The position numbers and the translations under genes are program-made. Under the pieces are notes generated by a model. It ran no database searches. It worked only from the letters and a program-made list of their open reading frames with translations, and had not been told where the DNA came from. Below, piece after piece: positions 6,023 to 43,985 of a stretch of 64,000 nt of DNA. The DNA lies in NCBI GenBank assembly GCA_964344235.1, contig CAYFMJ010000003.1, positions 31,508-95,507 of the forward strand. The letters are read 5' to 3'. The stretch is from an uncultured Methanosarcinales archaeon. GTDB lineage: Archaea; Nanobdellota; Nanobdellia; Woesearchaeales; GW2011-AR9. Position 1 is the stretch's first letter. Each line of letters starts with the position of its first letter.

Positions 6023-6028
6023 TTTTAA

Positions 6029-6268
6029 TTAAAGAATAGCCTTTACTTTGCTTACAAATCTAATGAATATATTAGAAGTATCAACACCATCTTTACGTAA
6101 TTTAGCCATCAGGCCATCAAGGCTCTTATCAGAATCTACTACTCTCTTATTATGAAAGGCAATGAACTTATTATTATACTTTGATTTAATTAATGTAAGG
6201 TTCTTATCAAACCATTGTATATCTTCTCTTCCCTGAAGCAGAGTTTGGGCAATAATGTTACTTTCCAT
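6029..6268 (-). CDS. DUF5678-like small protein
   Basis: KYNNKFIAFHNKRVVDSD..L pattern, directly upstream of a retropepsin. Confidence 0.7.
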   Translation of the reverse strand: MESNIIAQTLLQGREDIQWFDKNLTLIKSKYNNKFIAFHNKRVVDSDKSLDGLMAKLRKDGVDTSNIFIRFVSKVKAIL

Positions 6269-6344
6269 AATAATGTTTCACTTTAGTGTTATAAATGGTT
6301 TTACTTTTTAATGGTTTCGTACTAGTATTATTCATTTCCATTTT

Positions 6345-7583: not shown

Positions 7584-7711
7584 AGTACCTCTTTTTTCTA
7601 GAAAAGTATTTTGTGGTTAATAAATGTTTTTAGTGTTGGATTTTCAAAATTTTCTTTAAACTGTAGAAAGAAATGTTTATAGAAAAGAACTTAAAGTAAT
7701 GAGGATATAAA

Positions 7712-12402: not shown

Positions 12403-12445
12403 AGAGGATTTTTAGGAGAAATCATGTTTAAAAAGATTGTTGTGG

Positions 12446-13703
12446 TTAAGTGGTAATGGGTGAGGATCTTCCAATTGATTTATAGCAATCTGCAATAACA
12501 CTTTTAACTCGGTCTTTCGTTGCTTCTGTTGTAAGATGGTTATTCGAGAACACATCGTAGAGAGACTCTAGAGCTCGAAGTCTTCTTTCAGTCCTTGGGA
12601 AAAGTTTACGTCTCCCTCTATTCTGCTCTTTTATTTCCCAAGCTCTAAATTCCAGCTGCATGGCTAAATCCGATTCCCCTTTGTAAGGGTAGCGCTGCAT
12701 AACCGGGAGGCGAACCTGATGTCCAGTGCCATTTGTTTTACCACGATATAACGAGTGAGTGTATACTCCACTATTTTTCTTTCTTGAATGTAATCCAATT
12801 TTCCAATGGCCCTGATCTTTTCCAAATACCCTACGTTCAGGCACGCCAATTGTTCTAGCTAGTTGGCCTAACTCAAAATCTCGTGGGATAACTCTACCAA
12901 TTTCAAGTTTCTCAGCCATATACATTGCTGCAGCTAAAGCAAAGTAGGGAAGGTGGATTCGACTCGGATTAACAATTTTTTCCATATGTTCATCGTAACC
13001 ACGCCAATGTTTAAGATCTCTGAAGAAGTCATAACCACATTCAATTGCATCAATGAATAAAACAGGTGATTGTTCACGATCCATACAAACAAAAGCTCGC
13101 ATAAAGACAGAGAATTTTGCAGGAGGGACCTTAGGAACTGTTTTATCAAGTCCTAAGATATAAATTGAGCCACCCATCTGAGCATCATGAAGGATTTTCA
13201 TTCGTCCCCAAGTTGTTGACCTCAGATGATTATCGAGTGTTTCACAACTAGAGGCATGGGAAAGGTATGTGAGAAAAAAACTCCTCTTTCTAAGTCATAA
13301 GGATTCATAAATGAAAAGGCCAGATTAGCAGAGTCTAGAGGGTGATCAAAAACTGCAGTTAAGTCGTCACTATCTGCAAAGGTTTGGAATTTCTTCTCCA
13401 ATATAGGGATTTTGTCTCTTTCAGTCTTATTAGGATCGGCCGTAACTCCTTTCTGGAAAATTCTATATCTTTCTATTAAGGGCCAGACAGTTAGCATGGC
13501 AAGATGTTTTTGGAGTTCTTCAAGGGTATGGAAATCGGAGAACCCTCTACTCTAGCGGCCATAGTTCTTACTGTTTCCGGATGAGCTAAAAGGTTTCTTT
13601 GACCATAGTAGCTTATCATCTCCTCCAATGGAGGGATATCTTTGCGTGCCATAGCGGTGATTTGAGAAGCGCTTTTATAAAATTTCCTACTGTTTAGAGA
13701 CAA
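12446..13703 (-). pseudogene. One ~419-aa hypothetical gene split into three ORFs by two 1-nt deletions (pseudogene or assembly error)
   Basis: ORFs 13491-13703, 13222-13497 and 12446-13201 join in frame if one G is added at ~13545 (GGG run) and one T at ~13270 (T7 run). Confidence 0.65.
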
Positions 13704-29138: not shown

Positions 29139-29422
29139 ATGGTTAATAGTTCCGATATCCCTCGAAACGCAATACATGCCTCTGCTAGTCCGGGAGATGT
29201 GGTTGAAGTTCTCTTTCAAACACCTGATGGAATGGAGAGGTTTTATTTCACAGAAGAAGGTTTAGTCAACCCTTTTGGAGCAGCATATCCTCACACTGGA
29301 ACTCCAACCATTTCATTAGATGGAGTTGTTGTAGAAGGTGATGGCAGGGAATATCATTCCGGGGAGGAAGGATTTCACTTGCAGAGTATATCGCTTATAT
29401 AAATTTTTCGTTACTTATGAGT
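29139..29422 (+). pseudogene. 5' part of the host gene interrupted by the integrated element
   Basis: Ends at attL; continues in 43983-44543 once the element is removed. Confidence 0.6.
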
Positions 29423-29437
29423 GAAAAAAGTCACGAA
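29407..29437. repeat. attL: TTCGTTACTT-aTGAGTgaaaa-AAGTCACGAA imperfect inverted repeat
   Basis: Read directly from the sequence; right arm is the exact reverse complement of the attR arm over 12 bp. Confidence 0.8.
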
Positions 29438-29487
29438 TCCCCAAAAATTCGTTTTTCATTACTTTAAGTGGTTACAGAGTGCCGAGA

Positions 29488-29503
29488 TTTTCGTTACTTT
29501 TTT
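29488..29503 (-). repeat. Accessory copy of the end motif (TTTTCGTTACTTTTTT)
   Basis: 16-bp reverse complement of 43885-43900. Confidence 0.8.
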
Positions 29504-29523
29504 GCCAAAAAGAGGTGAAAAAG

Positions 29524-29844
29524 ATGACTGACACGACCAAATTGTACCATGAATTGCTAGAAAAGAGCGTATATGCGGTTCTCAGGGGAAACCTGCAGCG
29601 AAATGGCCTTCTGATGGAAGAAACAGATCAGACTGTCAAAATTATAGGGAATTCTAGAATTTCTATTATCCCCAAAGCGGAGATAATTGTTATAGACCTA
29701 GATAAGGAAGGGGCAGATATTACGCCAGAACAACAGACAGAGCTGCAGAAGATCAAAGCCTATCTTGAAGAGAAAAATAGGGCTACCAGGGAGAAAATAA
29801 AGGGGGATAATGAACCCCAATTTTCACTTAATAACTCAAGTTAA
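29524..29844 (+). CDS. Element hypothetical protein
   Basis: GAGGTGA RBS before ATG 29524. Confidence 0.7.
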   Translation: MTDTTKLYHELLEKSVYAVLRGNLQRNGLLMEETDQTVKIIGNSRISIIPKAEIIVIDLDKEGADITPEQQTELQKIKAYLEEKNRATREKIKGDNEPQFSLNNSS

Positions 29845-30063
29845 TACAATTTCAGGACTAAACGGTATGTAGTCGGATTTTGCGGTTACATATCAAAAAG
29901 AGGTGGTAAAGGAGGCTTCAACAATAGATTTGAGGCTAAAAAAAAGAGCATTTTGTGGAGCATTTTGCTCAACTTGTCTTGAAAATTAACAAAAATTCAC
30001 AACACCATCAAGGCTCGCTGAGAAATATGAAGTTGAGTTATTAACAAAAAAGAGGTATCAAAT

Positions 30064-30366
30064 GTGGGTAAACCAAAGAAGTATGATGTAAGAAGTATCA
30101 ATTTTGGCGAAGTAGGCCATCCAGCCAGGATATTAGTAGATAAATTCGTTAGTTTGCATGGAAAAACTGCACTTTCTCGCTTAATTAGACGTCTAGTGAT
30201 GATCTATCTTATGGAAAAGCCAGAGTATAGAGATTGGAAGGCTCAGAAGCTCATCTATGAGAGAAAAGAGCTAGGAAAGAAAGTTGCTCAGATCTTGGAA
30301 AGAAGGAGAAAGGTGGACGAAGAATTGAGAGACCTTGGAGTGAATCCAGATGAACTGATTTACTGA
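30064..30366 (+). CDS. Putative ribbon-helix-helix regulator with coiled-coil tail
   Basis: Beta strand (SINF) then helix-G-helix (ALSRLIRRLV), heptad C-terminus; GAGGT RBS. Confidence 0.5.
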   Translation: MGKPKKYDVRSINFGEVGHPARILVDKFVSLHGKTALSRLIRRLVMIYLMEKPEYRDWKAQKLIYERKELGKKVAQILERRRKVDEELRDLGVNPDELIY

Positions 30367-30368
30367 AA

Positions 30369-30524
30369 ATGAAGGGGCTAAAACGATTCAAATGTGGGCA
30401 CTGCTCAAGGAAATACACGGGCCTGAATAAATGGATCTTCAAGCATTTGGAGAAAAAACATCCTGACAAACCACCAAGGGCGCGTGCAATTGACCTAAAA
30501 TTTAGGTATCATCACGGAGGATAG
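30369..30524 (+). CDS. C2H2 zinc-finger microprotein, 51 aa, not in the ORF track
   Basis: MKGLKRFKCGHCSRKYTGLNKWIFKHLEKKH..; fits tightly between its neighbours. Confidence 0.7.
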   Translation: MKGLKRFKCGHCSRKYTGLNKWIFKHLEKKHPDKPPRARAIDLKFRYHHGG

Positions 30525-30528
30525 AACA

Positions 30529-30936
30529 ATGAAGGAAGATGAAAAAATAAAACAAGATTTCAACCAGAGAGTTCCAATCAATTTAGTTGACGAGCTTCTA
30601 ATACTACCAGGAGACATGAAGTCTAAAGAGAATAAGATTCAAGCTATAAAATTCAAAATAGCAGACCTTAAGAAAAAAGTTGAGAAGTGGGAGTTAAATG
30701 AACTAGAGAAAATTTATCTTCAGGTTGGCAGTGATGGAAAAAGAGTTTATTCTAATGAGAAGCTAAGGGAAGCAGAACTAGAGCGAAGAAAAGATGCTTC
30801 TCCTGAGATTAAGAAATTATACGCAGAATTGTATGAGAATGAAATCAAGCTAGAATCTGAATTAATCGAATTTCGATATATGGATCGCAGATATAGTGCA
30901 CTTAGAAACATTGCTAACATATTTTGTACTAGATAA
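30529..30936 (+). CDS. Coiled-coil element protein
   Basis: Charged helical ORF, GGAGG RBS. Confidence 0.7.
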   Translation: MKEDEKIKQDFNQRVPINLVDELLILPGDMKSKENKIQAIKFKIADLKKKVEKWELNELEKIYLQVGSDGKRVYSNEKLREAELERRKDASPEIKKLYAELYENEIKLESELIEFRYMDRRYSALRNIANIFCTR

Positions 30937-30938
30937 AA

Positions 30939-32294
30939 ATGGAAAACGAATCAATCAAAAGCATGAGGATAGAGAAGTTGAGCATAAGTTCTATTACTCC
31001 GGCCAATTATAATCCTAGAAAGATAAGTCCAGATGAACTTAACAAGTTAAGGAATAGCATACAGAAGTTTGGTTATGTTGAACCTATAATCTACAATAAG
31101 AGAACAGGGAAAATAGTTGGGGGACATCAAAGATTCAAGATACTTAAAGAAATTCTTGCTCCTGAAGAGCTCGTAGATGTTGTTATTGTTGATTTGGATG
31201 AGAATGAAGAAAAAACCCTTAACGTTGCGCTGAATAGAATTGGTGGAGAGTGGGATGACAATAAGTTATCAGAATTACTAAAGAATATTCACGATAATGA
31301 AGAAGACCTGCTAGAATTTACTGGGTTTAATGATAAAGAAATTGAACTCCTTTTGAATCAATTAGAATACGAAGACATATCCAAGGAAGAGAGATTTTTT
31401 TCCATCAATAGGGAAGACATCAAAGAATCAAAAATAAAGACAGGGGACATAGTTGTTCTAAATGATAAGCACAAAATAATTTGCGGCGATTCTTCTGATT
31501 CTTCAATATTCAAAAAATTATTTGTTAATAGAAAATTTGATTTAATGGTGACTAGTCCGCCATATAATGTAAACATTGCTTATGGTAAATATAAAGATAA
31601 CAAGAAATGGAATGAATACATTGACTTGATAAAAAAGATTTTTGATAATTCTAAACAATTCTTGAACGATTACAGATTTTTATGCATCAATATTGGTGAT
31701 ATGACGAAGAACAATTTATCTGCTCATTATAGCATAATATTGGAGAATCTTGATTACAAATACTGTAAAACAATCTATTGGGTCAAACCTTCTGCCTCAG
31801 CAAGAGGAACAAATGTATTGAAAACTCCCTATCCGCGATGGTATAGGCCAAAGGTCAACACGGAAACAATCTTGGTTTATGAATTTGGAGAAAAAGAACC
31901 AGAGATAGCTAATGTGATGTTGACATACTCAAAAGGAGAACTAACTTCTAAAACTAAGCCGGACAAAGGAGAAGCACAGGTAATTAGCAAGAGGTTGCTG
32001 AAACAATTTTTGACTAATGTTTGGTACATGCAACCTGAGACTACGCTCAGCAGAGATCATCCCGCACCTTATCCTGTTCAGTTACCTCTTAATTGTCTTA
32101 AGTTTTTCAGTTTGGAGAACGAAAGGGTATTTGATCCTTTTACTGGAAGCGGAACTAGTTTGCTAGCAGCCGATCTTCTTGGACGGGAATTTTACGGTAT
32201 AGAGTTAGATCCAAAATATGTTCAGTTGGTGATTGAGCGATATAAGAGGTATAAACCTGAATCAAAGATTGAGATAATAAAAAATGAAAATTGA
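30939..32294 (+). CDS. ParB-like N-domain + beta-class DNA amino-methyltransferase (SPPY, possibly m4C)
   Basis: YNPRKIS..SIQKFGYVEPII..IVGGHQR; TSPPY; HPAPYP; DPFTGSGTS. Confidence 0.9.
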   Translation: MENESIKSMRIEKLSISSITPANYNPRKISPDELNKLRNSIQKFGYVEPIIYNKRTGKIVGGHQRFKILKEILAPEELVDVVIVDLDENEEKTLNVALNRIGGEWDDNKLSELLKNIHDNEEDLLEFTGFNDKEIELLLNQLEYEDISKEERFFSINREDIKESKIKTGDIVVLNDKHKIICGDSSDSSIFKKLFVNRKFDLMVTSPPYNVNIAYGKYKDNKKWNEYIDLIKKIFDNSKQFLNDYRFLCINIGDMTKNNLSAHYSIILENLDYKYCKTIYWVKPSASARGTNVLKTPYPRWYRPKVNTETILVYEFGEKEPEIANVMLTYSKGELTSKTKPDKGEAQVISKRLLKQFLTNVWYMQPETTLSRDHPAPYPVQLPLNCLKFFSLENERVFDPFTGSGTSLLAADLLGREFYGIELDPKYVQLVIERYKRYKPESKIEIIKNEN

Positions 32295-33027
32295 AGAAGG
32301 AGATTTAGTTTATTTGGATAAGCACAGGCTTTTATGTGGAAATAGTTTGAAGTATTCAGTATTAAAAAAGTTACTTGGTGACAAAAAAGTTTCTATGTTG
32401 TTTACGGATCCACCTTATAATATAAGTTATGTTCCGGAAGATAGACCAATTGGGGGCCGGAGAAGGTCAAAAAATAAACTTGGCGGGATTATTGGTGATA
32501 CTAACTTTGATTTTAATAAATTTTTCAAGATTCTTGAGATTGGTTTTATAAAAGGAGCCATCTACGTTTGTGGGAGCACAAAGAACTACTGCGATGTTTA
32601 CAAATGGATGACTAATTTCTTTGACAGAGAACCGATTGTAATTGTTTGGAACAAGAATAACTACAGCATTGGAAGAAGAGATTATCATAGACAACACGAA
32701 TTTCTATTTTACTCTTGGTTTAAAGAAAAGGTTTGGAATGGTGACAAGGAAAGAAATCAGTCTGATGTTTGGAATGTTAAAAGAGTTCCATCAACAAAAT
32801 ACATTCATCCTACTCAGAAACCAGTTATCTTAGTTAAGAAAGCTATTTTGAACAGCAGCAACAAAGGGGAGATTGTTCTAGATTTATTTGGCGGTAGCGG
32901 AAGCACTTTGATAGCAGCTGAATCGTCTGGAAGGATATGTTATACTGTCGAATTGGATCCTCATTATTGCGAGAAGATGGTAGAGCGATGGGAAGCATTT
33001 ACTGGAAAAAAAGCGGTTAAGGTCTGA
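32284..33027 (+). CDS. Beta-class DNA methyltransferase (DPPY, likely m6A)
   Basis: FTDPPYN, HPTQKPV, LDLFGGSGST. Confidence 0.92.
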   Translation: MKIEEGDLVYLDKHRLLCGNSLKYSVLKKLLGDKKVSMLFTDPPYNISYVPEDRPIGGRRRSKNKLGGIIGDTNFDFNKFFKILEIGFIKGAIYVCGSTKNYCDVYKWMTNFFDREPIVIVWNKNNYSIGRRDYHRQHEFLFYSWFKEKVWNGDKERNQSDVWNVKRVPSTKYIHPTQKPVILVKKAILNSSNKGEIVLDLFGGSGSTLIAAESSGRICYTVELDPHYCEKMVERWEAFTGKKAVKV

Positions 33028-33029
33028 AA

Positions 33030-33362
33030 ATGATTGAATCTTATTTGAGAAAGCAAGAGAAGTGGGAGGAAACATCCACTGTTGAAGGGATGGATGCTTT
33101 AGAAGGAGAAACTATCACAAAAATTATTCCCTTAGATAAAGACAAGTATATGATTTTAATGAAAAGTGGGGCTAGTTGCGTTGTTCACACAGCTGGATCA
33201 TTTACGATTTATACAAAAGAAAAGACAACTAAGATACTGCAAGAAGTAACTGCCAAAAGTAAGAATTTCAGCATAATTCATTCAAGGGCTAAACTAGCTT
33301 TAGATCAGTTGGCACAAGAAAACCAACAGAAGAACGAACAGAATAAAACGGGGGCTGAATAA
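33030..33362 (+). CDS. Element hypothetical protein
   Basis: Co-oriented ORF packed 2-3 nt from its neighbours. Confidence 0.65.
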   Translation: MIESYLRKQEKWEETSTVEGMDALEGETITKIIPLDKDKYMILMKSGASCVVHTAGSFTIYTKEKTTKILQEVTAKSKNFSIIHSRAKLALDQLAQENQQKNEQNKTGAE

Positions 33363-33365
33363 AAG

Positions 33366-36338
33366 ATGGGTGTTTTTAGAGGAGTTAAATATGAGCTTTC
33401 GGATGAGGACAGAGTACTTGGCGGAAAGAGTAGAAGCCCAGCAAAAATAGCAGCTGCTAAAGTCAATGCTTTAAAGCATGGAAAATCATCTAAGGACCCC
33501 ACAATAAAAGAAGCAATTACTCCTACATCTAAAGAGAAAGCACTAGGAATTACGACTTCTGATAAAATCAAGCAGCTTAAGAGATTAAACCCTTTATTTG
33601 CAAGTGAAAATAGATTCAATTATTTATATGGGGTTCAGGAGTTCTTAGGGGAATTACTAGTTTCTGCATTGAGAAAGAAAAAGGAAGGTAAGTCAACAGA
33701 TTATGAATATAGGCAACTTACTAGATTGAGTTTAGAGTTGTTTGATAGATTCTATGGCAAGCCAGATACTATTGTGAATGTACAGCAAAATTTGGAAGTT
33801 ACGGAAAGTGTTTTACTTACTCCTACGGCTGCACCTGTAGCAGCAAAAGGATTAATCTACTTTGACAGCACAGCCAATAAGATCAAAGTTTCGGAAGATG
33901 GAGCTACGTTTGTAGATCTTGGTGGAGATGTTACAGAAGTAATTGCTGGTTCTGGATTGACGGGCGGAGGAACTGGTGGAAGTATTACTCTTGATATAGG
34001 TTCAAGTACTGGGATAATAGTTAATGCTAATGATATTGCCGTTGATGTTGGTACAGGACCAAACCAAATTGTCCAGTTAGATGGGACTTCCAAACTTCCC
34101 GCAGTGGATGGAAGTCAATTAACAAACTTACCTTCAACGCCAGGGGAAACAACAACTGGCGTTAATAGAGAACTTAAGCAACAAATTGAGGTAGTAGAAT
34201 TATTAGAGGTTAGTAGTTTAACATCTTTAGTTGGTGTTAGTGAAGATATAATTGTTGAAACATTCTCTGACGCTGATGGATTTAACAATTTAGTTAATGT
34301 TAGTAATACGGATGCTACTCATGATTTGCCTAGCAAAAGATACAAAGCAGAATTTGTTGCTGGCGGTGGTGGTTTAATCATTGATGATTTTGACAGAGCC
34401 GATAGTGCTACCGTAGGAAACGGCTGGACTGAAGTTGAAACAACAGGAAGTACATGGTCAATAGTAAGTAACAGAGTTAAATGTGATTATGAAGGAAGCA
34501 GTGATCCAAATATTCATAAAAATATTGGAAATCAGCCAGCATTTGATATCAAGGTTAAGTGGGAATCTACAAATGTTAATATAACAAGGCCCTCTTTAGC
34601 GGTAAATGGTGATGGAATCGCACCACAAAATGGTTTATCGATGAGGGCTACTTCTAGTAGTGGTTTTGGAATTACAAGAAATGGAAGTGTACTTGCTTCT
34701 ACATCTTTCACTTTCTTAGACAACACTGAGTATTTCTATAGACTACAGTGGAACGGCTCTACTTTGAAAGGAAAAGTATGGAAAGCAACAGATGCAGAAC
34801 CTGGAAGTTTTCAACTAAGTACAAGCACCACTACGGTTACGGACAATGAAGTTACTTTATCCTGTATAGCAAATGCAAGTGGTTCTGAGGATGTGTTCTT
34901 TGAAGATTTACAATTCGTAGGAGAAACAATAGAAACGATTGATGATTTTAATAGAGCAAACTCTGCTACTGTCGGCAATGGATGGACAGAGGATGAAGGT
35001 TTTGGGACATGGCAAATTCTTTCAAATAAAGTAAGAGGAGAAAGGACATCGGATGGGAAAGTGACTATGTTTAAAACACTGGGTAATAAAAGTAGTATGA
35101 TTCTTAAATCAAAGGTTAATCGTACAACGACAGTCGCTACTCTCAATTTCAGAATGGGATTTAATTCTACTTCCGGAGATGTTAATGCAAGTGGATTAAC
35201 TCTCCTTGTTGAAGATAGTGGGTCTATTTTAAGTCTATTAAGAGAAGGTGTAAGTTTAGCTAGTACCACTTTCACAGTTGATGAGAGTACAGATTATTTT
35301 ATGCAATTATCTTGGGACGGTTCAACGTTCAAAGGAAAAATCTGGAAAACTTCTGAAAGCGAGCCATCTGGTTACCAACTCTCCGCAAGTACTACAAATT
35401 CAACTGGAGATAAAATTGGATTCACTATCAGTGGTGGTGGACCTGCAACTGGAACAATTGATTGGGATGATGTGGAGATTCCTGCCAATACTGGACTTGC
35501 CGCAACCATAGATGACTTTAACAGGGCCAATTCAACAACAATTGGAAATGGATGGACAGAAGATGTGGGAAACTGGGAAATTTCTGGTAATGAACTAAAG
35601 GGGCCAGTTGATAACAGCAATCCGCGAATTACTAAAGACATAGGAAATAGAGGGACATTTAACGTAAAAGCAAAGATTAGAAGAGAAGATACTAGTTTTA
35701 GATTTAGCATGGAGATCAACAATACAACTCCTAATTTATCTACTGGAATGAAAATTGCATATGATGATAGTACTTTTAGCATTGGTAGAGCCGCTACAGG
35801 ACTTGCATCTACACCTCTTTCTTTTCCAGCAAACACAGACCATTTTATGAGATTGCAGTTTGATGGAACTGATTTGAAAGGAACCCTCTGGGACGCTTCC
35901 GGAGCTGAACCAAGTCCTCAACTTTCTGCAACTACTACAAACACATCTGGGACAGGTATCTTACTTCGTAATGATAAAGCTGGAGGAGGCATTGGTCTAT
36001 CACAGTTTTGGGATGAAATAATCGATGAGAGTATTACTGGCACTGGACCGGGGATAACAGAAAGAAAAGTAGAATTAGATTTACCAACTATAAGCGGAAC
36101 AGTCACTGATACTCAACTTGCTTCCCGATTTAATTTGGAAACTGGAAATGAAATTAAGTATGAATTGGAAGATGCAAGTGCTAACAAAGATACCGACTTA
36201 GCATTTGATACCAAGAATACTCTCACAAATCTTGTATCAAACCCAACAAAGTTAAGGATATTGTTAAAACGAGGAACAGGTGGTTCAGTTGACGAACCAA
36301 ATGTTAAATCAATAGCAATGAGATTATTCAAATCATAA
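33366..36338 (+). CDS. Chimera: terminase-small-subunit-like N-terminus (~145 aa) fused to a tail-fibre/receptor-binding-like protein
   Basis: Basic NALKHG..DRFYGKP head; then GLIYFDST..KVSEDG, GSGLTGGG, NQIVQLDGTSKLPAVDGSQLTNL and three beta-rich repeats. Confidence 0.7.
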   Translation: MGVFRGVKYELSDEDRVLGGKSRSPAKIAAAKVNALKHGKSSKDPTIKEAITPTSKEKALGITTSDKIKQLKRLNPLFASENRFNYLYGVQEFLGELLVSALRKKKEGKSTDYEYRQLTRLSLELFDRFYGKPDTIVNVQQNLEVTESVLLTPTAAPVAAKGLIYFDSTANKIKVSEDGATFVDLGGDVTEVIAGSGLTGGGTGGSITLDIGSSTGIIVNANDIAVDVGTGPNQIVQLDGTSKLPAVDGSQLTNLPSTPGETTTGVNRELKQQIEVVELLEVSSLTSLVGVSEDIIVETFSDADGFNNLVNVSNTDATHDLPSKRYKAEFVAGGGGLIIDDFDRADSATVGNGWTEVETTGSTWSIVSNRVKCDYEGSSDPNIHKNIGNQPAFDIKVKWESTNVNITRPSLAVNGDGIAPQNGLSMRATSSSGFGITRNGSVLASTSFTFLDNTEYFYRLQWNGSTLKGKVWKATDAEPGSFQLSTSTTTVTDNEVTLSCIANASGSEDVFFEDLQFVGETIETIDDFNRANSATVGNGWTEDEGFGTWQILSNKVRGERTSDGKVTMFKTLGNKSSMILKSKVNRTTTVATLNFRMGFNSTSGDVNASGLTLLVEDSGSILSLLREGVSLASTTFTVDESTDYFMQLSWDGSTFKGKIWKTSESEPSGYQLSASTTNSTGDKIGFTISGGGPATGTIDWDDVEIPANTGLAATIDDFNRANSTTIGNGWTEDVGNWEISGNELKGPVDNSNPRITKDIGNRGTFNVKAKIRREDTSFRFSMEINNTTPNLSTGMKIAYDDSTFSIGRAATGLASTPLSFPANTDHFMRLQFDGTDLKGTLWDASGAEPSPQLSATTTNTSGTGILLRNDKAGGGIGLSQFWDEIIDESITGTGPGITERKVELDLPTISGTVTDTQLASRFNLETGNEIKYELEDASANKDTDLAFDTKNTLTNLVSNPTKLRILLKRGTGGSVDEPNVKSIAMRLFKS
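34377..36030 (+). repeat. Three ~186-190-aa tandem domains starting IDDF(D/N)RA(D/N)S.T(V/I)GNGWTE
   Basis: Unit starts at ~34377, ~34935, ~35505; shared L.W/F.G..LKGK.W....EP...QLS.ST ends; synonymous sites diverged. Confidence 0.9.
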
Positions 36339-36353
36339 TGGAGGTAGATAATA

Positions 36354-36632
36354 ATGGCAGATAGATGGTTTAGAGTACCACAAATTGGAGCTGGAACGAC
36401 AGCTGATCCATTTAGACCTGAAACAAATGGATTGAATCAATGGGCTAGTGCTGGACAATACGGAGACAACGACTTTCTCGTACGAGTTTATGGGACCACG
36501 GCAGAACTTGACGCTTTAGCACTAGTGACTGGAGTAACTGAAGTGACAGCAACATTTGATACTGAATACAATACTCTATGGACTACAAGTTTAGGCAAAC
36601 CCGACATTGAGGCAAAAGTTTTTGCTGCTTAA
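36354..36632 (+). CDS. Small virion-associated-like hypothetical protein
   Basis: GGAGGT RBS; P..GAGT..DPFRP motif; directly follows the fibre gene. Confidence 0.65.
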   Translation: MADRWFRVPQIGAGTTADPFRPETNGLNQWASAGQYGDNDFLVRVYGTTAELDALALVTGVTEVTATFDTEYNTLWTTSLGKPDIEAKVFAA

Positions 36633-36634
36633 GA

Positions 36635-36784
36635 ATGGATCTGTTCAAATGGTTACAAGAAATAAAGCGGAACACATACTTTCATTTGAAAGAACTAATC
36701 GAGAAACTCCACAAAAAATACTTCCAAGAAGTATGGATTGAAGTTGGACACAATGGTAACAGATACTGGAAAAATAAACGGTAA
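36635..36784 (+). CDS. 49-aa hypothetical, not in the ORF track
   Basis: ATG 2 nt after the previous stop. Confidence 0.4.
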   Translation: MDLFKWLQEIKRNTYFHLKELIEKLHKKYFQEVWIEVGHNGNRYWKNKR

Positions 36785-37037
36785 TGTCATCAGAATGGCT
36801 GAATTTAAAGGAGAAGTTCTTGCTACTTTGAGGTATCTTAAGGAACAGCAACGCGAACATAGAGATGAAGTAAAAACAGGATTTAAAGAACAAAGCGAGG
36901 ATATTAAGAAAATTTCACGAAACTTGGAAAAGCATCTTAAAAAGTCAGCTATTCAGAAATGGGTAACTGGTTCAATAGTAGTATGGTTAAGTGCCCTTAC
37001 TGGTGTTCTTGTTAAAATATTTGTACTTGGAGGTTGA
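36738..37037 (+). CDS. Coiled-coil protein with C-terminal TM helix (lysis-cassette-like)
   Basis: AEFKGEV.. heptads plus one C-terminal hydrophobic helix; true start may be downstream. Confidence 0.6.
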   Translation: MKLDTMVTDTGKINGNVIRMAEFKGEVLATLRYLKEQQREHRDEVKTGFKEQSEDIKKISRNLEKHLKKSAIQKWVTGSIVVWLSALTGVLVKIFVLGG

Positions 37038-37039
37038 AA

Positions 37040-37207
37040 ATGAAAAAAGACTGGTGGAAATCACGGATGATTTGGATTAATGTTCTAGTTACAGTTAGTG
37101 GTATTGCAACTGCTCTTGCAGATCATTTGACAGCAGGAGGAGCATTGACGGGAATAGGAGTTGTTAATATTGTATTAAGAGTCCTTACAAAACAACCAGT
37201 GAAGTAA
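37040..37207 (+). CDS. Holin-like two-TM microprotein, 55 aa, not in the ORF track
   Basis: MKKDWWKSRMIWINV...VVNIVLRVLTKQPV; GGAGGT RBS. Confidence 0.7.
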   Translation: MKKDWWKSRMIWINVLVTVSGIATALADHLTAGGALTGIGVVNIVLRVLTKQPVK

Positions 37208-37314
37208 TTATTTTTATAAATCTCTTTTCACACAGAAGCCTATACCACCTCTTTTTCCCTATTTGGAGTCGAATCCCTACTCCATCAATCTGGCGAGGGA
37301 AAGTAGCGCCAGAT

Positions 37315-37770
37315 TTAGGGTTTTTTTAATCGTTCTCCCACATCCTTCCTTAACGTAGAAACATACAATTTCAATTGCACTTCAACTTCTCGCCATTCTT
37401 TATCTGTGATTGACTTTCCTTCATAATGTGTTCTGTTTCTCATAAAACGGACTTTCTCAAAGAAATTCCAATCTAATTCTAGTTCAGGAAACTTAACACA
37501 GATATATGCAAAACATCCCTGATGGTTACTACATTTGACTTTTTGCAGGCGAAGCAGAATGTCACACAATTCCCTTAGTGAATCATAATAAAGAAGAAAA
37601 ATTACACGCCAGTTAATGACTTTCTTAGTAATAAGGGTTTCTGCAAACTGTACATTATCAGCAGCAATATCGTACATTCTTTGAAGAGCAAGTTCATCTA
37701 TATCTTTTTCTCTATACTCTCCTGCTACTGTTACTTTATCATAAATTTCTTCAGCTGTCTTTTCAGGCAT
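37315..37770 (-). CDS. HEPN-like domain protein (toxin of an MNT-HEPN pair)
   Basis: LYYDSLRE, NHQG, RFMRNRTHYEG; overlaps the MNT gene. Confidence 0.75.
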   Translation of the reverse strand: MPEKTAEEIYDKVTVAGEYREKDIDELALQRMYDIAADNVQFAETLITKKVINWRVIFLLYYDSLRELCDILLRLQKVKCSNHQGCFAYICVKFPELELDWNFFEKVRFMRNRTHYEGKSITDKEWREVEVQLKLYVSTLRKDVGERLKKP

Positions 37771-38305
37771 GAATGCTCACCGTAAATGGTTCTATTTTTC
37801 CTTTAACATGTATTCCTGCAAGGATATTAGGTATAACATTCTCAATCCTTTTTAATTTTTGCGGGTCTTCGTATTCAAAAAGTTGAATTTCCCTCTTAAA
37901 AATGCGTTCAAACTTTCCTTGTTCAAATTCATCAGCATTACCATAGATAAATAGATCAATATCACTCTCATAATCCCAATCAGCTCTAGCAAAACTGCCA
38001 AAAATAATGACTGTTTTGGCCTTGGGTAAGGAACTGAGGTGTTCTAAAAATCCTGTCTTTTCAAATTGCTGGAAAGCATAGAGCCTTTTCTCCATCTTGA
38101 ATTTTACATTTGTGTAGTTAGCAATATAATATGGCATTTTGCCTTTAGGTCTAAATTTTTTTATGAGCTCTTCCTTAGTTAATTTTTTAAGCCATTTATT
38201 GGTGCTAGTTCTACTTAATCCAGACTTCTTTACAAGGTCGTCAAAGTGCCAGTGCTTCGTTGAATAATTGAAGAATAGCTCTTTAATATTCTCTTTTTGT
38301 CTCAT
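37763..38305 (-). CDS. wHTH + minimal nucleotidyltransferase (MntA-like antitoxin)
   Basis: N-terminal HTH; FGSFARADWDYESDIDLF. Confidence 0.88.
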   Translation of the reverse strand: MRQKENIKELFFNYSTKHWHFDDLVKKSGLSRTSTNKWLKKLTKEELIKKFRPKGKMPYYIANYTNVKFKMEKRLYAFQQFEKTGFLEHLSSLPKAKTVIIFGSFARADWDYESDIDLFIYGNADEFEQGKFERIFKREIQLFEYEDPQKLKRIENVIPNILAGIHVKGKIEPFTVSIHA

Positions 38306-38419
38306 ATTTTAGTACATATATGTGTACTACTTTATAAAGTTTTTGTTCCTAAATCGCTGTAGTTGTACCTCAGAATAAGTAACAAGCTTTTTAAATGAGC
38401 TAAATTATAACAAAATAAA

Positions 38420-40483
38420 ATGAAGTTTACAAGGAATTTATCGGAATTGGACAAGGATGATGTCTCATTAGCGGGAGGAAAAGGGGCATCATTAGGAGAA
38501 ATGATTAAAGCAGGTATCCCTGTGCCAGGCGGATTTGTTGTTCTCTCTACGGCATTTGAGGATTTTATCGAAAAAACAGATTTAAACGTAGAAATTGACT
38601 CTATTTTACATTCTGTTGATCTTAAGAAAATGCATACCATTGAAGAGGCATCAGAAAAAATTAATGCTCTTATTCTTAATGCAAAGATTCCAAATGAGAT
38701 AGTGAGAGAAATAAAAGAATTATTCAAAAAAATGGGAGCCTCATTTGTTGCAGTTCGTTCTAGTGCTACTGCTGAAGACAGCTCAACAGCTGCATGGGCT
38801 GGTCAATTAGAGACCTATCTTAATACTACTGAAGAAAATCTTATTGAGAATATTAAAAAGTGTTGGGCTTCACTGTTTACACCAAGAGCAATATTCTATC
38901 GCTTCGAAAAAGACCTGCATAAGCAAAGAATTTCTGTTGCTGTTGTTGTGCAGAAAATGATTCAAAGTGATGTTTCGGGAATAGCATTCTCGGTTCACCC
39001 CGTTACTGAAGACAGGAATCAACTTATTATAGAAGCAGGATATGGCTTAGGTGAAGCAATTGTTTCTGGTTCTATAACTCCTGATAGTTATGTAGCCGAA
39101 AAAGAACCACTGAAGATTCTTGATAAAAACGTGTATGCTCAAGAAAAATCACTTGTCAAATCAGAAGAAGGTGGTACAGAATGGAAAGAAGTTGCTCAGG
39201 CAGATGTTGAAAAGCAAAAATTAACAGATAATCAGGTACTTGAGCTTACAAAAATCATAATCAACATTGAGGATCATTATGGATTTCCTGTTGATGTTGA
39301 ATGGGCTTTAGAAAATGGAAAATTCTACCTAACGCAATCTAGACCAATTACCACACTTTCAGCGGATACAGGATCTAAGGAAAAATTTTCAGGAGTTCCC
39401 GATATTGCAAACGATGATCTTCAGTATCTTCTTGAGCGAAATGAACTTTACTTTGTATCTTCTATTTTAGCAGGCGGGTTTTGTGGTGAAGAAAATGTAA
39501 AGAAAATATTTGACATTTCTCCTCCAGCGGGAATAGTTCAACGCAATGATGACTTTTTCTTAATTAAATCAACATTGATACCATTTACAAAAAAACTGAA
39601 AGAGAAAATAAAACAAGAGGGTTATGTAAGAAGAATTATTGAAGAATGTCATCAAGCTGGAGCGCAATTACAGGCAGAACTCAAAGAGATTGGAGAGAGG
39701 GCTGCAAAAGTAAGAACAAAAGAAGAGATAGCAAGGTTATTAGAAGAATTTTTTGAAAAAGCAAAAACCTATTGTTCTTTTTATCCAATTGCCCTTTTTG
39801 AGAAACCAATGACTGAATTTGCAGAAAAAATTGCTAAGAAATACACTAAGGATGACAATGAGATGCAAGAGATTTTTAACTTAATAACAACTCCAAGTCA
39901 TACTACAGAAGCTGATAAAGAAAGAGATGATTTTCTAAAGTTATGTGCTCTTGCAGACAAAGGTGAAGATATAAGTCACTTGGCAGAAGAACATGCAAGA
40001 AAATATGGTTGGATAGCAATTAGATATCTCAGAGGAAATTTATGGAAGAAAGAAGATATCCTAAAAAGAGTTGCAGAAGCTGACCTTACCCTTGCAGAAC
40101 AAGAACTCAAATCAAGGAAAAAACATAGAAAAGGAGTAGAAGAAAAGTTGCAAGAATTCATTAAAAAAGTGTCAAATGAAGATAAAGAAAGAATTCAACA
40201 AATAAGAGAAATTGTGTACTTACGAACACAACGGGCTGAGTATTTAGACATGTCAACACAGTATATAATTGGATTTCTACATAGGGTTAATGACGAGTTG
40301 GGTTTAGACTATGAGGACATGCTTCAATGTAATCTGCGTGAAATTGTCGATATGCTAACCACTGGTATTAATTTAAAAGAAGAAATTGCAGCTAGGCATA
40401 AGGAGCTGCTTGTTTTTCATAATGCTGGAGGGGTTTGTCTTTCTGGAGAAGATGCTGAGGAGTATATGGAGCTTCTGGATTAA
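38420..40483 (+). pseudogene. PEP synthase / rifampin-phosphotransferase-like ATP-grasp protein lacking the C-terminal phospho-His domain
   Basis: AGGKGASLGE, VAVRSSATAED, VVVQKM, EAGYGLGE.IVSG, DVEWA, QSRPIT; stops with no GG..SHAAI.RE motif. Confidence 0.75.
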
Positions 40484-40676
40484 GACATTTCACTAACCTT
40501 TTCTTTCTTAGTTCTCCAAGTGTTACAGATACTTTTACTAATTGTATCTTAAGAGATTTACTGATTTCTGTAGGCGTTATGGGCTCTTCGTATTCATCCA
40601 AAATATTCAGCACTTTCTTCCTGCGATAACCTCTTCGTAGCCACGCCACCAAACGGTAATCAATAGATAAGTCCAT
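40392..40676 (-). pseudogene. Winged-helix regulator truncated after KCLNPEA
   Basis: R.KVL..L..PITPTEISK..VS.TL.EL...LVKCLNP; the tail reads antisense into the PEP gene. Confidence 0.65.
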
Positions 40677-40758
40677 AGAAAGAACAGGTATCCTATCGGA
40701 TAAAAGACAGGTTTACCGTTAGATATAACTATTTAACAAGGGCAACTTATTTAAAGAA

Positions 40759-41019
40759 ATGAGAAAACAAAAACTAACGAGGTGGTTATTTATGGAAGAA
40801 AATAAATTTATGAATAAAGAGGATCTAAGCAAGCTAGCTAAAGAAGTTGTGAAAATTTTGAAGAATGACGAAGAGTATGCTCAATTTGTTGGTAGCGAAG
40901 TTCAAGATTATCTTGAAAAAACTAAAATACGAGAACATATTAATGAAATTGATGAACTAAAAAAAGAATTTAAACAATTATTATCTGAAGTAAAAGGCAA
41001 AGCTAGACAAGAACCATGA
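40759..41019 (+). CDS. Element hypothetical coiled-coil protein
   Basis: GAGGTGG RBS suggests a start at MEEN. Confidence 0.55.
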   Translation: MRKQKLTRWLFMEENKFMNKEDLSKLAKEVVKILKNDEEYAQFVGSEVQDYLEKTKIREHINEIDELKKEFKQLLSEVKGKARQEP

Positions 41020-41022
41020 TTT

Positions 41023-41181
41023 TTACTTCTTTCTTTTCATATACTGATTAATGAATCTTTCTAGTACTGTCCAGACTTTTTCTCTTCTTTTCTTGACTTC
41101 ATGAGTAAAATCAATCCATTTATCTCTATTCCCTCGGAAGGACAATGAATCATCCTCGGACGAACCCTTTTTTTTTGCCAT
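41023..41181 (-). CDS. Putative RHH/CopG-like repressor, 52 aa, not in the ORF track, divergent from the integrase
   Basis: MAKKKGSSEDDSLSFRGNRDKWIDFTHEVKKRREKVWTVLERFINQYMKRKK. Confidence 0.55.
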   Translation of the reverse strand: MAKKKGSSEDDSLSFRGNRDKWIDFTHEVKKRREKVWTVLERFINQYMKRKK

Positions 41182-41544
41182 GTGGTACAATGCTATTGTC
41201 TTACTATATAAATATTTACATTAATTTAGGGCAATCTTTATATATCTCCTATGTCCCACAGTGACAAAGTGCTACAAATAAAAAAGTACGTAAATGGAAG
41301 AAATTTAGGCTTATTTATCCCAAAAAAGAGAAATATAGTATTATTCTCTCAGAAAGGGATAAGGATAAGTGAAAATTGTACCATGTTAGTGGTGAAAAAG
41401 GCAACACAATATCAACCATGCCGTAATCCTAGTTTAAAGGGGGCGGTATGTGATAGCAAGAGCCCCAACATCTGTTTTTACTTGTTGGGTAGTTAAGAGT
41501 TGGAGCTGTGCCTGCTGTCTCCAAAAAAAATGGAGGTGGTAGGT

Positions 41545-42396
41545 ATGCTACCAAATAGAATAAGGTATGTGAAAATGGGTAAATCAACCCTAGCGAAAAA
41601 AATAACGGAAGAGGAATTGCAGACATTCTTTGACGCAATTCCAAGAGTGACAAAAAGGAGCACGTATTGGCTCACATTGTTTATGACTCTAAGCGATGCT
41701 GGGCTTAGAGCAGGTGAGGCAGTGAGATTGAAAATAAATGATATCCATCAGGAGAAGAATATCATTACAGTACACCAGCAAAAGAATGGCGTAGATCATG
41801 AAGATACGCCTTTTACTCAAAGGTTGAGAGAACAACTCAACAAATTTATTGCCTTATATCATAAACAAATCAAAGAGAGTGGGGACTATATGTTCTTCAC
41901 TCAATATACAGTTAGGGGTCAAGATGTTATAGGCGAGGGTGAGCACATTAAGACTTCTAATTTACGAAAGATGTTCAATAAAGTAAGGGCTGAAGCAGCC
42001 ACTGTCATGCCAAGCATAGGAAGAGCTTATACAAAGAGGACAACAAAAGACGTTACCAATGGTAATGCTCCATGTAAGGCACTTGGCAGGCCTCTGATGG
42101 TAATTACGCCCCACACTTTAAGACATCGCTTTATACAGCGAATAGCGGACCAGGAGGGACTCTTTAAGGCCCAACAGTGCGCTAGACACCTACATTTTTC
42201 TTCTACCTTAGTCTATGCAAAAAAGAGCATGAAAGCAAAAGTTGAAGCAATAAACAACACGTTTGATTCCGAGAAGAAGGACCAAGCAGAAGAGATTAAT
42301 GAATTAAAAGAACAGGTTGCAAGCCTTACAAAAATGCTTCAGGATAATATGAATATTCTGAAGTTCATTAAGGGGGTGAATGGAGGAAATGAATAA
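41545..42396 (+). CDS. Tyrosine recombinase/integrase: catalytic domain with C-terminal coiled coil
   Basis: AGLRAGE (R), QKN (K), PHTLRH (H-x-x-R), HLHFSSTLVY (H..Y); GGAGGTG RBS before ATG 41545. Confidence 0.92.
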   Translation: MLPNRIRYVKMGKSTLAKKITEEELQTFFDAIPRVTKRSTYWLTLFMTLSDAGLRAGEAVRLKINDIHQEKNIITVHQQKNGVDHEDTPFTQRLREQLNKFIALYHKQIKESGDYMFFTQYTVRGQDVIGEGEHIKTSNLRKMFNKVRAEAATVMPSIGRAYTKRTTKDVTNGNAPCKALGRPLMVITPHTLRHRFIQRIADQEGLFKAQQCARHLHFSSTLVYAKKSMKAKVEAINNTFDSEKKDQAEEINELKEQVASLTKMLQDNMNILKFIKGVNGGNE

Positions 42397-42664
42397 GCAA
42401 GAAACCAAATATCTCTTAGAAGTTTACAAAGATTGTCTAAAACTTGAAAGGCAGAACCAATTAACAGAGCATGGTGCTGGAATGGGCGAATTAGCTTCTA
42501 TTCTTCTCAAGAAGCACAGAGAATTCAAGCATCTGAAAGAAAGGGAGAAATTGAAATGCCTATCTTGTAAGAAGGCTTATTGGGTATCTAATGAAGAGAG
42601 ATGCGTTTTTTGCGATTCAAAAAAGGTAGTGAAGGCAAATGCCCCTCTACCAGTTAAACACTAA
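42380..42664 (+). CDS. Zinc-ribbon element protein
   Basis: CLSC..CVFC. Confidence 0.65.
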   Translation: MEEMNKQETKYLLEVYKDCLKLERQNQLTEHGAGMGELASILLKKHREFKHLKEREKLKCLSCKKAYWVSNEERCVFCDSKKVVKANAPLPVKH

Positions 42665-42680
42665 CTTGGAGGTAATACCA

Positions 42681-42986
42681 ATGAAAGAAAACAAAAAACT
42701 AGCCGTAGGCATAAAAAAGGACTTTACTAAGAAGAAATCCGGAAGAAAAAGAGTATCACACAGGGAAGTGTGTTATAGAATTCTAAAGGAGAGAGGTAAG
42801 CCAATGCATTACAAAAAAATAACGGAAGAAGTTCTAAAGGAATGTAAGTCAGTAGGTAAGACTCCGCAAAATACAATGTATGCTAGAATGTTAACAGACA
42901 AGAAAAGATTCAAACTTCTTGGCAAGGGAAAGTTTGCTCTCTTAGAATGGGAAAACAAAGCGAAGGTGATTAAGAATGCCAAATGA
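42681..42986 (+). CDS. HARE-HTH domain protein
   Basis: EVCYRILKERGKPMHYKKITEEV...GKTPQNTMYARM..RF...GKG.F.L; GGAGGT RBS. Confidence 0.8.
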   Translation: MKENKKLAVGIKKDFTKKKSGRKRVSHREVCYRILKERGKPMHYKKITEEVLKECKSVGKTPQNTMYARMLTDKKRFKLLGKGKFALLEWENKAKVIKNAK

Positions 42987-43332
42987 AATTGGAATTGTAT
43001 CTAAAGTCAAACCACGGGACAAAACTTACAGTGTTGCAGTAAACAAACAATGGTTTGGTGGTTTCGGTAAGTGTCCTGTACTTGAAGGAGAAACAGTGAA
43101 AATTGAATGGAAGCAGAAAGGTGACTTTAAGAATATATTAAAAATAGAGAAAGTAGAACCTGTATTTCAAGATGAGCTACAACAAGCTCCTGAAATTGAT
43201 TCTAGGATCAATGATATAAGGCTTCAGGTTTGTGTAAAAGCTGCAGCCGGAGTGTTTGCAGGAACAAAAATCAACCCATCAGAAATTGCTGAGTATTCAA
43301 GGAACTTGTTTAAGGAATTGTGGGGGAAGTAA
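42976..43332 (+). CDS. Possible OB-fold ssDNA-binding protein
   Basis: Beta-rich N-half (GETVKIEWKQKGDFKNI) and helical IRLQVCVKAA tail; tentative. Confidence 0.4.
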   Translation: MPNEIGIVSKVKPRDKTYSVAVNKQWFGGFGKCPVLEGETVKIEWKQKGDFKNILKIEKVEPVFQDELQQAPEIDSRINDIRLQVCVKAAAGVFAGTKINPSEIAEYSRNLFKELWGK

Positions 43333-43333
43333 T

Positions 43334-43516
43334 ATGACTAAAGCAACAGAAGAGCTAACAAATGAGAAACAAGACAGCATAAAATTAAGCAAGAATTCAA
43401 AGGGTTATGTCTGGGAAATCAAACGATATTACGATTTCTCAAAGACAAAGCCAGAAGATGTAATTAAACAGCTTGGAGAGATAGATAAAGAGCTTAAAGA
43501 GAAATTTGGAGGTTGA
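43334..43516 (+). CDS. Element hypothetical protein
   Basis: SIKLSKNSKGYVWEIK; ATG 1 nt after the previous stop. Confidence 0.65.
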   Translation: MTKATEELTNEKQDSIKLSKNSKGYVWEIKRYYDFSKTKPEDVIKQLGEIDKELKEKFGG

Positions 43517-43522
43517 ATTATC

Positions 43523-43780
43523 ATGAGTGAATGGTTTAAGAAAAAGTTTCCTGGGCTTACTAGTGAAGTTGGAGAAGTGACTCAGAGAGAGTGGAAGGAG
43601 GCAAAGAAAGCTTACTTAGAATGGAAGAAACAGGAAATGTTGTCTCCGGAGAACATTGAAAAACATTGTCTTGATAAAGAGCTGGTAAGGAAAGCAGTGG
43701 GAAAATTAATTTTATTGAATCAAGAGGATCCAAAATTAAGAAAGTGGTACAATGTTATCACAAAAGAACTGGGCCTTTGA
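43523..43780 (+). CDS. Element hypothetical protein
   Basis: GGAGGT RBS. Confidence 0.65.
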   Translation: MSEWFKKKFPGLTSEVGEVTQREWKEAKKAYLEWKKQEMLSPENIEKHCLDKELVRKAVGKLILLNQEDPKLRKWYNVITKELGL

Positions 43781-43863
43781 GAGCAAAAATGCGGAAACCG
43801 AAAAGCATAAATAGATGTACTACTTTACTCATTCTAGACATGCACTTAAAATTAAGTGTGTGT

Positions 43864-43959
43864 AAAAAGTAACGAAACACCACAAAAAAAGTAACGAAAA
43901 CTGAAAAATGCCAAGCGTAACGGAAATGTGGGAACTCGTGAATTCTTAAGCAACGGAAA
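43864..43959 (+). repeat. Four direct copies of the end motif: two AAAAAGTAACGAAA, two degenerate G(T/C)AACGGAAA
   Basis: At 43864, 43884, 43917 and 43948. Confidence 0.75.
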
Positions 43960-43969
43960 TAGGCAATTA

Positions 43970-43985
43970 TCGTGACTTTTTGAGT
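43970..43985. repeat. attR: TCGTGACTTTT-TGAGT
   Basis: Arm is the reverse complement of 29425-29436; TGAGT is shared with attL. Confidence 0.8.

Follow-up and report, generated by a model that had tools for sequence, protein, structure and literature searches.

A 990-codon in-frame fusion of a candidate small-terminase gene and a tail-fibre-type gene: the probable deletion scar of a tailed provirus in a DPANN archaeon

A fusion gene inside an integrated element

I analysed a 64,000-nucleotide stretch of archaeal DNA, hereafter the window (positions 31,508 to 95,507 of contig CAYFMJ010000003.1, GenBank assembly GCA_964344235.1). In the window, an integrated element carries a single open reading frame (ORF) of 990 codons in which a candidate small-terminase domain is joined to a tail-fibre-type protein. 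The host genome is a metagenome-type assembly of 1.19 Mb in 37 contigs and is 96% complete. A neighbouring ThrRS gene with an archaea-specific editing domain and the presence of Lhr- and Ski2-type helicases point to an archaeal host. The element is flanked by host genes on both sides, midway along a contig of 95.5 kb. Its GC content is 36.1%, as against 40.2% in the rest of the window. The motif TTTCGTTAC occurs at 29406 and 29489 on the plus strand and at 43869 and 43891 on the minus strand, and is thus inverted at the two element ends; five copies were found in the window, while 0.48 were expected. These ends, together with the integrase gene, agree with the initial annotation of the locus. 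The fifth exact copy of TTTCGTTAC, at 20593-20601 (minus strand), is ~9 kb away from the element, where it separates the Lhr helicase gene from a 252-amino-acid (aa) ORF.

The fusion ORF can be divided into the parts shown in Table 1. The table also lists the relevant genes of G402 (IMGVR_UViG_3300033150_001344), an uncultivated tailed virus of 48,749 bp with a CheckV completeness of 69%. As the initial annotation had it, the frame of the fusion gene is unbroken; the chance of finding 848 open codons at the base composition of the element is ~8e-31. Lysine and arginine make up 19% of residues 1-142 and 7.9% of residues 143-990, while glycine, serine and threonine together rise from 20% to 32.8%. 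This switch in composition had been placed at about 33800, and the switch in homology was found at 33792-33794, within the interval of 33780-33830. The only full-length match was the fusion protein itself, both in a HMMER search of 1.84 billion representatives and in a word-index search of 5.8 billion proteins; neither search found a second protein uniting the two parts.

Table 1. Features of the integrated element and of the reference virus G402
Sequence	Feature	Position	Strand	Basis or remark
Window	Integrated element, ~14.6 kb	29404..43985	no strand	End motifs, integrase, GC content
Window	ParB-N / DNA methyltransferase fusion	30939..32294	+	PF02195 + PF01555; phrog_498, E 8e-92
Window	Second DNA methyltransferase	32284..33027	+	PF01555, E 5.9e-24; phrog_498, E 3.5e-65
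Window	110-aa ORF directly 5′ of the fusion gene	33030..33362	+	Homologue in G402, phmmer E 9.8e-16
Window	Fusion ORF, 990 codons, 990 aa	33366..36338	+	Stop-free
Window	N-domain, residues 1-142; candidate small-terminase (terS-position) domain	33366..33791	+	Free-standing homologues of 165-205 aa
Window	Junction codon L143 (TTG)	33792..33794	+	Gap between the tblastn homology blocks
Window	Native N-terminal motif of the fibre-type protein, residues 144-185	33795..33920	+	55% identity to P0149 residues 9-50
Window	Gly/Thr/Ser-rich fibre motif, residues 186-265	33921..34160	+	Matches many large beta-strand-repeat / tail-fibre proteins
Window	Neck segment, residues 270-330	34173..34355	+	blastp to a viral family of 320-430 aa (P0146, P0150, P0156, P0202 and others)
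Window	Lectin-like repeat 1, residues 335-520	34368..34925	+	Direct repeat family D1, spacing 558/570 nucleotides; alignment A4
Window	Lectin-like repeat 2, residues 521-710	34926..35495	+	AF2 model, Foldseek, phrog_2804
Window	Lectin-like repeat 3, residues 711-895	35496..36050	+	Direct repeats, alignment A4
Window	Conserved C-terminal domain, residues 896-990	36051..36335	+	Common to the 320-430-aa family
Window	92-aa ORF after the fibre, without known family	36354..36632	+	ORF list, Pfam/PHROGs
Window	99-aa ORF with hydrophobic C-terminus	36738..37037	+	Weak match to phrog_9415, E 9.6e-5
Window	Nucleotidyltransferase gene and small adjoining ORF	37315-38305	-	PF01909
Window	687-aa protein: PPDK_N ATP-grasp as sole domain, then a long K/E-rich helical region	38420-40483	+	PPDK_N, E 1.4e-100
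Window	wHTH gene	40392..40676	-	Homologous gene on contig L023
Window	Tyrosine-recombinase integrase	41500..42396	+	PF00589, E 3.2e-16; phrog_1, E 4e-19
Window	HARE-HTH-type gene	42639..42986		Homologues of ~97 aa in L018 and L020
G402	Homologue of the 110-aa ORF	451..792		phmmer E 9.8e-16
G402	N-domain homologue	731..1348		Profile E 4.3e-30
G402	TerL	1311..2960		phrog_2, E 5e-35
G402	Portal/MuF	5666..8011
G402	Major head protein	12049..13056
G402	Many structural-size genes without assignment	between major head and baseplate wedge
G402	Baseplate wedge	30917..33004		phrog_6, E 4.5e-52
G402	Three virion proteins with fibre motifs	after baseplate wedge
G402	P0149, 338 aa	39454..40470		Last gene of the tail module

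The fibre part

The Gly/Thr/Ser-rich motif of the second part shares 80.6% identity over 31 aa with an annotated tail fiber protein of the Pelagibacter phage HTVC309P. As to gene place, the homologue P0149 is the last gene of the tail/baseplate module in G402. The three lectin-like repeats are ~186-190 aa each and are 38-39% identical to one another. Their match to DUF7257 lies just under the Pfam cut-off (25.9 bits against 27), and repeat 2 matches the virion structural protein family phrog_2804 (E 1.9e-9). An AF2 model of repeat 2, made from a shallow alignment, has a pLDDT of 90.4 and a pTM of 0.88. The modelled repeat is a ConA-like lectin sandwich, for which sugar binding is predicted. 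In a Foldseek search of PDB, CBM66 (4b1m) was the best match with an E value of 9.7e-10, followed by the L-type lectins ERGIC-53/VIP36/Emp47p and legume lectins. The fold of the repeat thus resembles those of ConA-like lectins, CBM66, and L-type lectins (4b1m, 1gv9, 2duq; E ~1e-9, TM 0.65-0.76), while the sequence identity is 10-17% and, unlike these proteins, the window fibre has three tandem copies. A fibre of this type points to glycan receptors on these cells.

In at least 25 clusters of 320-430-aa proteins, P0149 among them, the final ~100 residues are 37-59% identical to the C-terminal domain; window residues 902-990 align to the C-terminus of P0149. The two proteins differ in that P0149 is without the fibre motif and has nothing that clearly corresponds to the three lectin repeats. 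No match to the fibre part was found in four related proviruses/genomes.

Could the archaeon have adopted the fibre as its own adhesin for attachment to a partner cell? Many DPANN archaea are cell-surface symbionts, the gene encodes three lectin-fold domains, and its ORF is intact. However, neither a signal peptide nor a membrane anchor is present in the N-terminal sequence of the fusion protein, and the gene still resides within an element with an integrase and end repeats. Moreover, the four related genomes contain no orthologue of the fibre part, and weak N-domain matches, to small ORFs only, were found in six other genomes when 401 genomes of the phylum were searched with a profile. Host domestication is thus barely credible.

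The N-terminal domain and the junction

The first part, residues 1-142, is referred to as the N-domain. Among its best 150 matches in the HMMER search, only free-standing proteins of 165-205 aa were found. Examples come from the clusters P0128 (56% identity over residues 1-143), P0132, P0136, P0170, P0195, P0201, P0206, P0210, P0227, and P0230.

Where does one gene end and the other begin? When all the G402 ORFs were compared with the whole genome by tblastn, the N-domain block ended at nucleotide 33791 and the P0149 block started at nucleotide 33795, one codon apart. In the fusion protein, a conserved NVQQN sequence occupies residues 138-142 and is followed by a change of character. The free-standing N-domain homologues run 25-35 residues beyond NVQQN, while eight residues of P0149 precede the stretch aligned to window residues 144-185. 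Thus, the first gene seems to be short of its last 25-35 codons and the second gene short of its first eight codons.

It was also considered whether the N-domain is simply the normal anchor of such a fibre, which would have contradicted the initial annotation. This can be excluded, because the N-domain is always a separate small gene elsewhere and the fibre part keeps its own native N-terminal motif. In BLAST searches, the fibre homologues P0165 and P0134 appeared to extend across the junction; they were rejected because their alignments upstream of residue ~150 are low-identity padding. A Shine-Dalgarno-like motif precedes position 33366 and several other genes of the element, and there is none before TTG143. 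Separate translation of the fibre from the TTG at codon 143 is therefore unlikely and was rejected.

A 104-aa antisense ORF (33305-33619, minus strand) covers the start of the fusion gene, and "homologues" of it lie antisense to the N-domain genes of G402 and of the short contig L022. It was rejected as a gene and regarded as a shadow of the conserved sense frame.

Gene order in a tailed virus and the proposed deletion

In G402, all the genes from the homologue of the 110-aa ORF to P0149 are on one strand, and the strand switches after P0149. The 110-aa ORF, the N-domain gene and the fibre-type gene are in the same order and on the same strand as in the window. Unlike in the window, ~38 kb of TerL, portal, head, tail, and baseplate genes are located between the N-domain gene and the fibre-type gene of G402. 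Therefore, the two genes fused in the window are the counterparts of the first and last genes of a ~38-kb morphogenesis block.

Are the intervening genes present elsewhere in the host genome? In the tblastn search of every G402 ORF against the whole genome, matches were found in the fusion ORF only, and none of the intervening proteins had a match anywhere in the 1.19 Mb. The ORFs of a second IMG/VR contig, G401, gave matches from the homologues of the ParB-N/methyltransferase fusion (ParB-MTase) and from the N-domain only. A further genome search with phrog_38, phrog_2, phrog_6, the L014 TerL, and the L014 portal found nothing except one match (E 6.8e-4) to a 789-aa ORF on another contig. Within the element, none of the ORFs matched a TerL, portal, capsid, or tail/tail-tube family in Pfam or PHROGs, and the absence of these genes between the element ends, already remarked upon in the initial annotation, was thus confirmed.

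These results suggest, with a probability of roughly 0.7, that the element is a defective (cryptic) provirus of a tailed archaeal virus, formed by a single in-frame deletion of ~38 kb. The integrase and the element ends are present, and the particle genes that have been lost are those lying between the homologous genes in G402. A large deletion scar had been one of the proposals made from the sequence alone, and it is the one favoured here: the N-domain is normally a separate gene upstream of TerL, and the fibre gene closes the tail module of G402.

The ancestor may have been a provirus of ~50 kb with a gene order like that of G402. A single deletion of ~38 kb would have started within the first packaging gene, with 25-35 codons of it still to come, and ended eight codons into the last tail gene, removing the TerL, portal, head, tail, and baseplate genes. 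Such a deletion has a one-in-three chance of being in frame. The product would be one ORF of 990 codons, translated, if at all, from the terS-type start codon at 33366. If the N-domain acts as a small terminase (TerS), as it may, the fusion protein would probably have no packaging function, because the C-terminal tail that is missing is the usual contact of TerS with TerL.

Integrated viruses are well known to decay by deletion, and the event is thus of an ordinary kind, with an unusually clean junction. Cryptic prophages generated by internal deletion are familiar remnants in Escherichia coli K-12. Like them, the element keeps an integrase, ends, accessory genes, and a tail-fibre-type gene and has lost the packaging, head, and tail genes. 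Unlike those of E. coli K-12, it resides in a DPANN host, and the first and last morphogenesis genes have been joined cleanly in frame into a hybrid ORF. Cryptic prophages are among the subjects of two published articles (PMC6379469, PMC7744054). The precisely mapped junction is a case of provirus decay dated by structure, and it indicates that a reduced symbiont genome of 1.2 Mb still carries and erodes proviruses.

Several points weigh against the single deletion. G402 is distant from the window (29.5% identity in the N-domain and 27-55% in the fibre segments), and for this reason the ancestral gene order is a reconstruction. The initial annotation had called for full-length related proviruses; the distant G402, with its 48.7 kb, does bracket the ~38-kb block, but neither IMG/VR nor the GTDB genomes yielded a full-length close relative. 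A search with alignment A2 found nothing in either collection and three short contigs of JGI. The window N-domain, the C-terminal 280 aa, and P0195 gave nothing in IMG/VR, and P0149 gave nothing in the GTDB genomes. A search with alignment A7 added one contig of 10.9 kb only. The word-index protein search found nothing with the N-domain alone and three proteins only with alignment A1. In addition, the genes of the closest N-domain homologues, on the contigs L022 and L023 (44-53% identity; contigs of 1.0-1.6 kb), are not directly followed by TerL. The N-domain gene is followed by small ORFs in L022, by a convergent winged helix-turn-helix (wHTH) gene in L023, and by two small ORFs and the contig end in G401. 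A small ancestral element without TerL may thus have existed. Finally, the intact genes of the element and the stop-free fusion ORF fit a recent deletion and selection alike.

An assembly error is another conceivable reason for the join. The real provirus might be of full length, and the assembler might have skipped everything between the terS-type gene and the fibre gene, or have collapsed a minority variant. A metagenome-type assembly of 37 contigs is open to this suspicion. However, the join preserves the reading frame and falls midway along the 95.5-kb contig, with host genes on either side, none of the supposedly skipped genes is present on the other contigs of the bin, and the exact 990-aa protein is on record from two contigs. 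Because of these three facts, an artefact is quite improbable.

Comparison with satellites

Phage-inducible chromosomal islands and related satellites carry their own terS gene, and a fibre is not typical of them. The element resembles these islands in being small and integrated and in having an integrase and a terS-type gene and no capsid genes. It differs from them in that the terS-type gene is truncated and fused and a fibre is carried; no helper was found, nor a family of like elements. Is the element then a satellite rather than a decayed provirus? In that case, its lineage would have had no morphogenesis genes, would have combined terS-type packaging recognition with a receptor-binding fibre, and would have depended on a helper; the fusion would have been selected or would have arisen from a small local deletion.

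The intact integrase and end motifs, together with the open ORFs throughout the element, are in keeping with a satellite. So are L022 and L023, where TerL does not follow the N-domain gene and where, in L023, the next gene (L023:360-617, minus strand; JGI contig of ~1 kb) is homologous to the wHTH gene of the window (E 3.6e-8). The layout of L023 hints at small elements with a terS-type gene ending the operon, on a contig too short to judge. Satellites of tailed archaeal viruses are so far undescribed; according to a 2025 preprint, the known archaeal satellites are pSSVx/pSSVi and the SRCEs presented in that preprint only, all linked to spindle-shaped viruses (10.1101/2025.02.15.638363).

On the other hand, TerL may sit just past the ends of L022 and L023. 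Neither of the large protein searches gave a second instance of the fusion architecture, and the terS-type part is without its C-terminal 25-35 residues. No helper provirus and no TerL, portal, or baseplate gene was found in the genome, no replication initiator was recognised among the element ORFs in the Pfam and PHROGs scans, and two steps are required instead of one deletion. A recurrent family of similar small elements was found neither in the large protein searches nor in IMG/VR or the GTDB genomes, with the window's own parts as queries. A satellite-like origin is thus unlikely, and the proposal of a satellite-like or domesticated element, offered in the initial annotation beside the deletion, gained no support. 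A working satellite of tailed DPANN viruses, riding in helper particles and using the hybrid protein or a fibre derived from it as its own lectin-type receptor-binding fibre, is very improbable. If true, it would be the first satellite of a tailed archaeal virus.

L022 also has an ORF of at least 108 aa (1235-1558, plus strand) downstream of its free-standing N-domain gene; it is cut by the contig end and weakly matches phrog_4652 (E 0.0013).

The N-domain as a candidate small terminase

The favoured reading of the element as a defective provirus leaves the function of the N-domain as a separate question. The initial annotation had described a basic, helical, terS-like head. The basic character (19% lysine and arginine) and the helical fold in the model stood up, while the terS label, which had been derived from composition, found no match in the curated terS families.

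What does the gene order say? The N-domain gene comes after ParB or ParB-MTase in the window and in L024, G401, G402, and L014-L017, and in G401 the homologous ParB-MTase is directly upstream. L014-L017 are four DPANN proviruses with a distant homologue of ~200 aa between ParB and TerL, overlapping the TerL start (for example, 9922..10530 for the homologue and 10499..11968 for TerL). Their TerL belongs to phrog_38 (E 8e-48), and a portal/MuF gene comes next. These ~200-aa proteins match both ends of the N-domain profile and are tied to the N-domain family by a pairwise phmmer comparison of L022 with L014 (E 3e-6). The N-domain homologue of G402 also overlaps the start of TerL on the same strand (Table 1). 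In total, five loci show this overlap with the TerL start on a common strand, and their TerL genes come from two unrelated families, phrog_38 and phrog_2. In G402 and L014, the two loci examined, no rival terS candidate was visible in the interval from ParB to TerL.

For G402, the complex of TerL and the N-domain homologue was predicted with a score of 0.53, while the best control scored 0.00; the pLDDT of the partner was at least 48 and the contact agreement at least 28%. Of 80 solved complexes, 58 attained the mark used, as did 2 of 110 mismatched pairs; passes of up to 0.60, this one included, are rated as weak.

The N-domain family is thus probably a family of small terminases, a candidate assignment made because of gene position and the weak complex prediction and not because of family membership. 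The homologues resemble the TerS proteins of tailed viruses in lying directly 5′ of TerL and overlapping it, in their size of 165-205 aa, in the basic N-terminus, in the predicted helical structure with a long hairpin, and in the weakly predicted contact with TerL. They are unlike TerS in that the N-domain falls outside the curated terS families and is unlike the solved terS structures, and the window copy lacks the C-terminal 25-35 residues. Pfam and PHROGs do not register this candidate small-terminase family of tailed DPANN viruses, and annotation could benefit from its description.

The following results count against the terminase label. Neither the N-domain nor any of 15 family members matched a terS family of Pfam or PHROGs at E values up to 1. 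With the AF2 model of the N-domain, which is all-helical with a long hairpin (83-107/112-130) and has a moderate pLDDT of 66.5, Foldseek searches of BFVD and PDB gave nothing below E 0.6, and no solved terS was matched. A wide fold search (VIA wide) found generic hairpins only (Z ≤ 7.8), and in the ESM Atlas the sub-0.9 leads went to viral hypothetical clusters only. Furthermore, genes of 123-143 aa in other DPANN genomes, not beside TerL, share only the N-terminal basic motif (profile positions ~6-51). The N-domain genes of L022, L023, and G401, with small ORFs or a convergent wHTH gene in the place next to them and not TerL, also speak against the label.

It may be that the scar is real and that the N-domain is some other small protein that binds nucleic acid, for instance a regulator or an accessory factor, encoded between ParB and TerL. 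The failure to match terS families or structures, the weakness of the TerL complex prediction, and the occurrence of the basic motif alone, away from TerL, in the 123-143-aa genes all speak for it. Nevertheless, the overlap with two unrelated TerL families in five loci, the lack of a rival terS candidate in G402 and L014, and the size, helical content, and long hairpin that suit a terS make this reading doubtful. In addition, terS families are in general too diverse for sequence models.

The 123-143-aa genes occur as tandem pairs or triplets at L018:6645-7450 (minus strand), L018:14413-15215 (plus), L019:1168-1942 (plus), and L020:9773-10550 (plus). They may be a small-protein family in their own right that makes use of this DNA- or RNA-binding motif. 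In L018 and L020, the tandem genes are followed by a gene of ~97 aa of the HARE-HTH type, homologous to that at 42639..42986 of the window.

A 32.9-kb contig, IMGVR_UViG_3300033069_001236 (L032-L034), encodes in order a 655-aa primase/helicase-like protein, a 177-aa ORF, ParB-MTase, the N-domain homologue P0210, and two small ORFs, after which the contig ends. The 177-aa ORF has an ERK-containing motif and looks nuclease-like by eye. At the opposite end, there is a long one-strand run of large ORFs, one of which is 1585 aa in length. This contig seems to break inside the packaging region.

Other genes of the element

Apart from the fusion gene, all the ORFs of the element look intact. In addition to the genes in Table 1, small regulators and a C2H2-type finger protein were found in the Pfam and PHROGs scans. 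The 92-aa ORF after the fibre had no match in phage records. For the 99-aa ORF that follows it, a holin-like role is a guess from its position. The nucleotidyltransferase gene and its small neighbour on the minus strand have a layout resembling that of MNT/HEPN-type toxin-antitoxin pairs, with the small ORF as the candidate HEPN partner.

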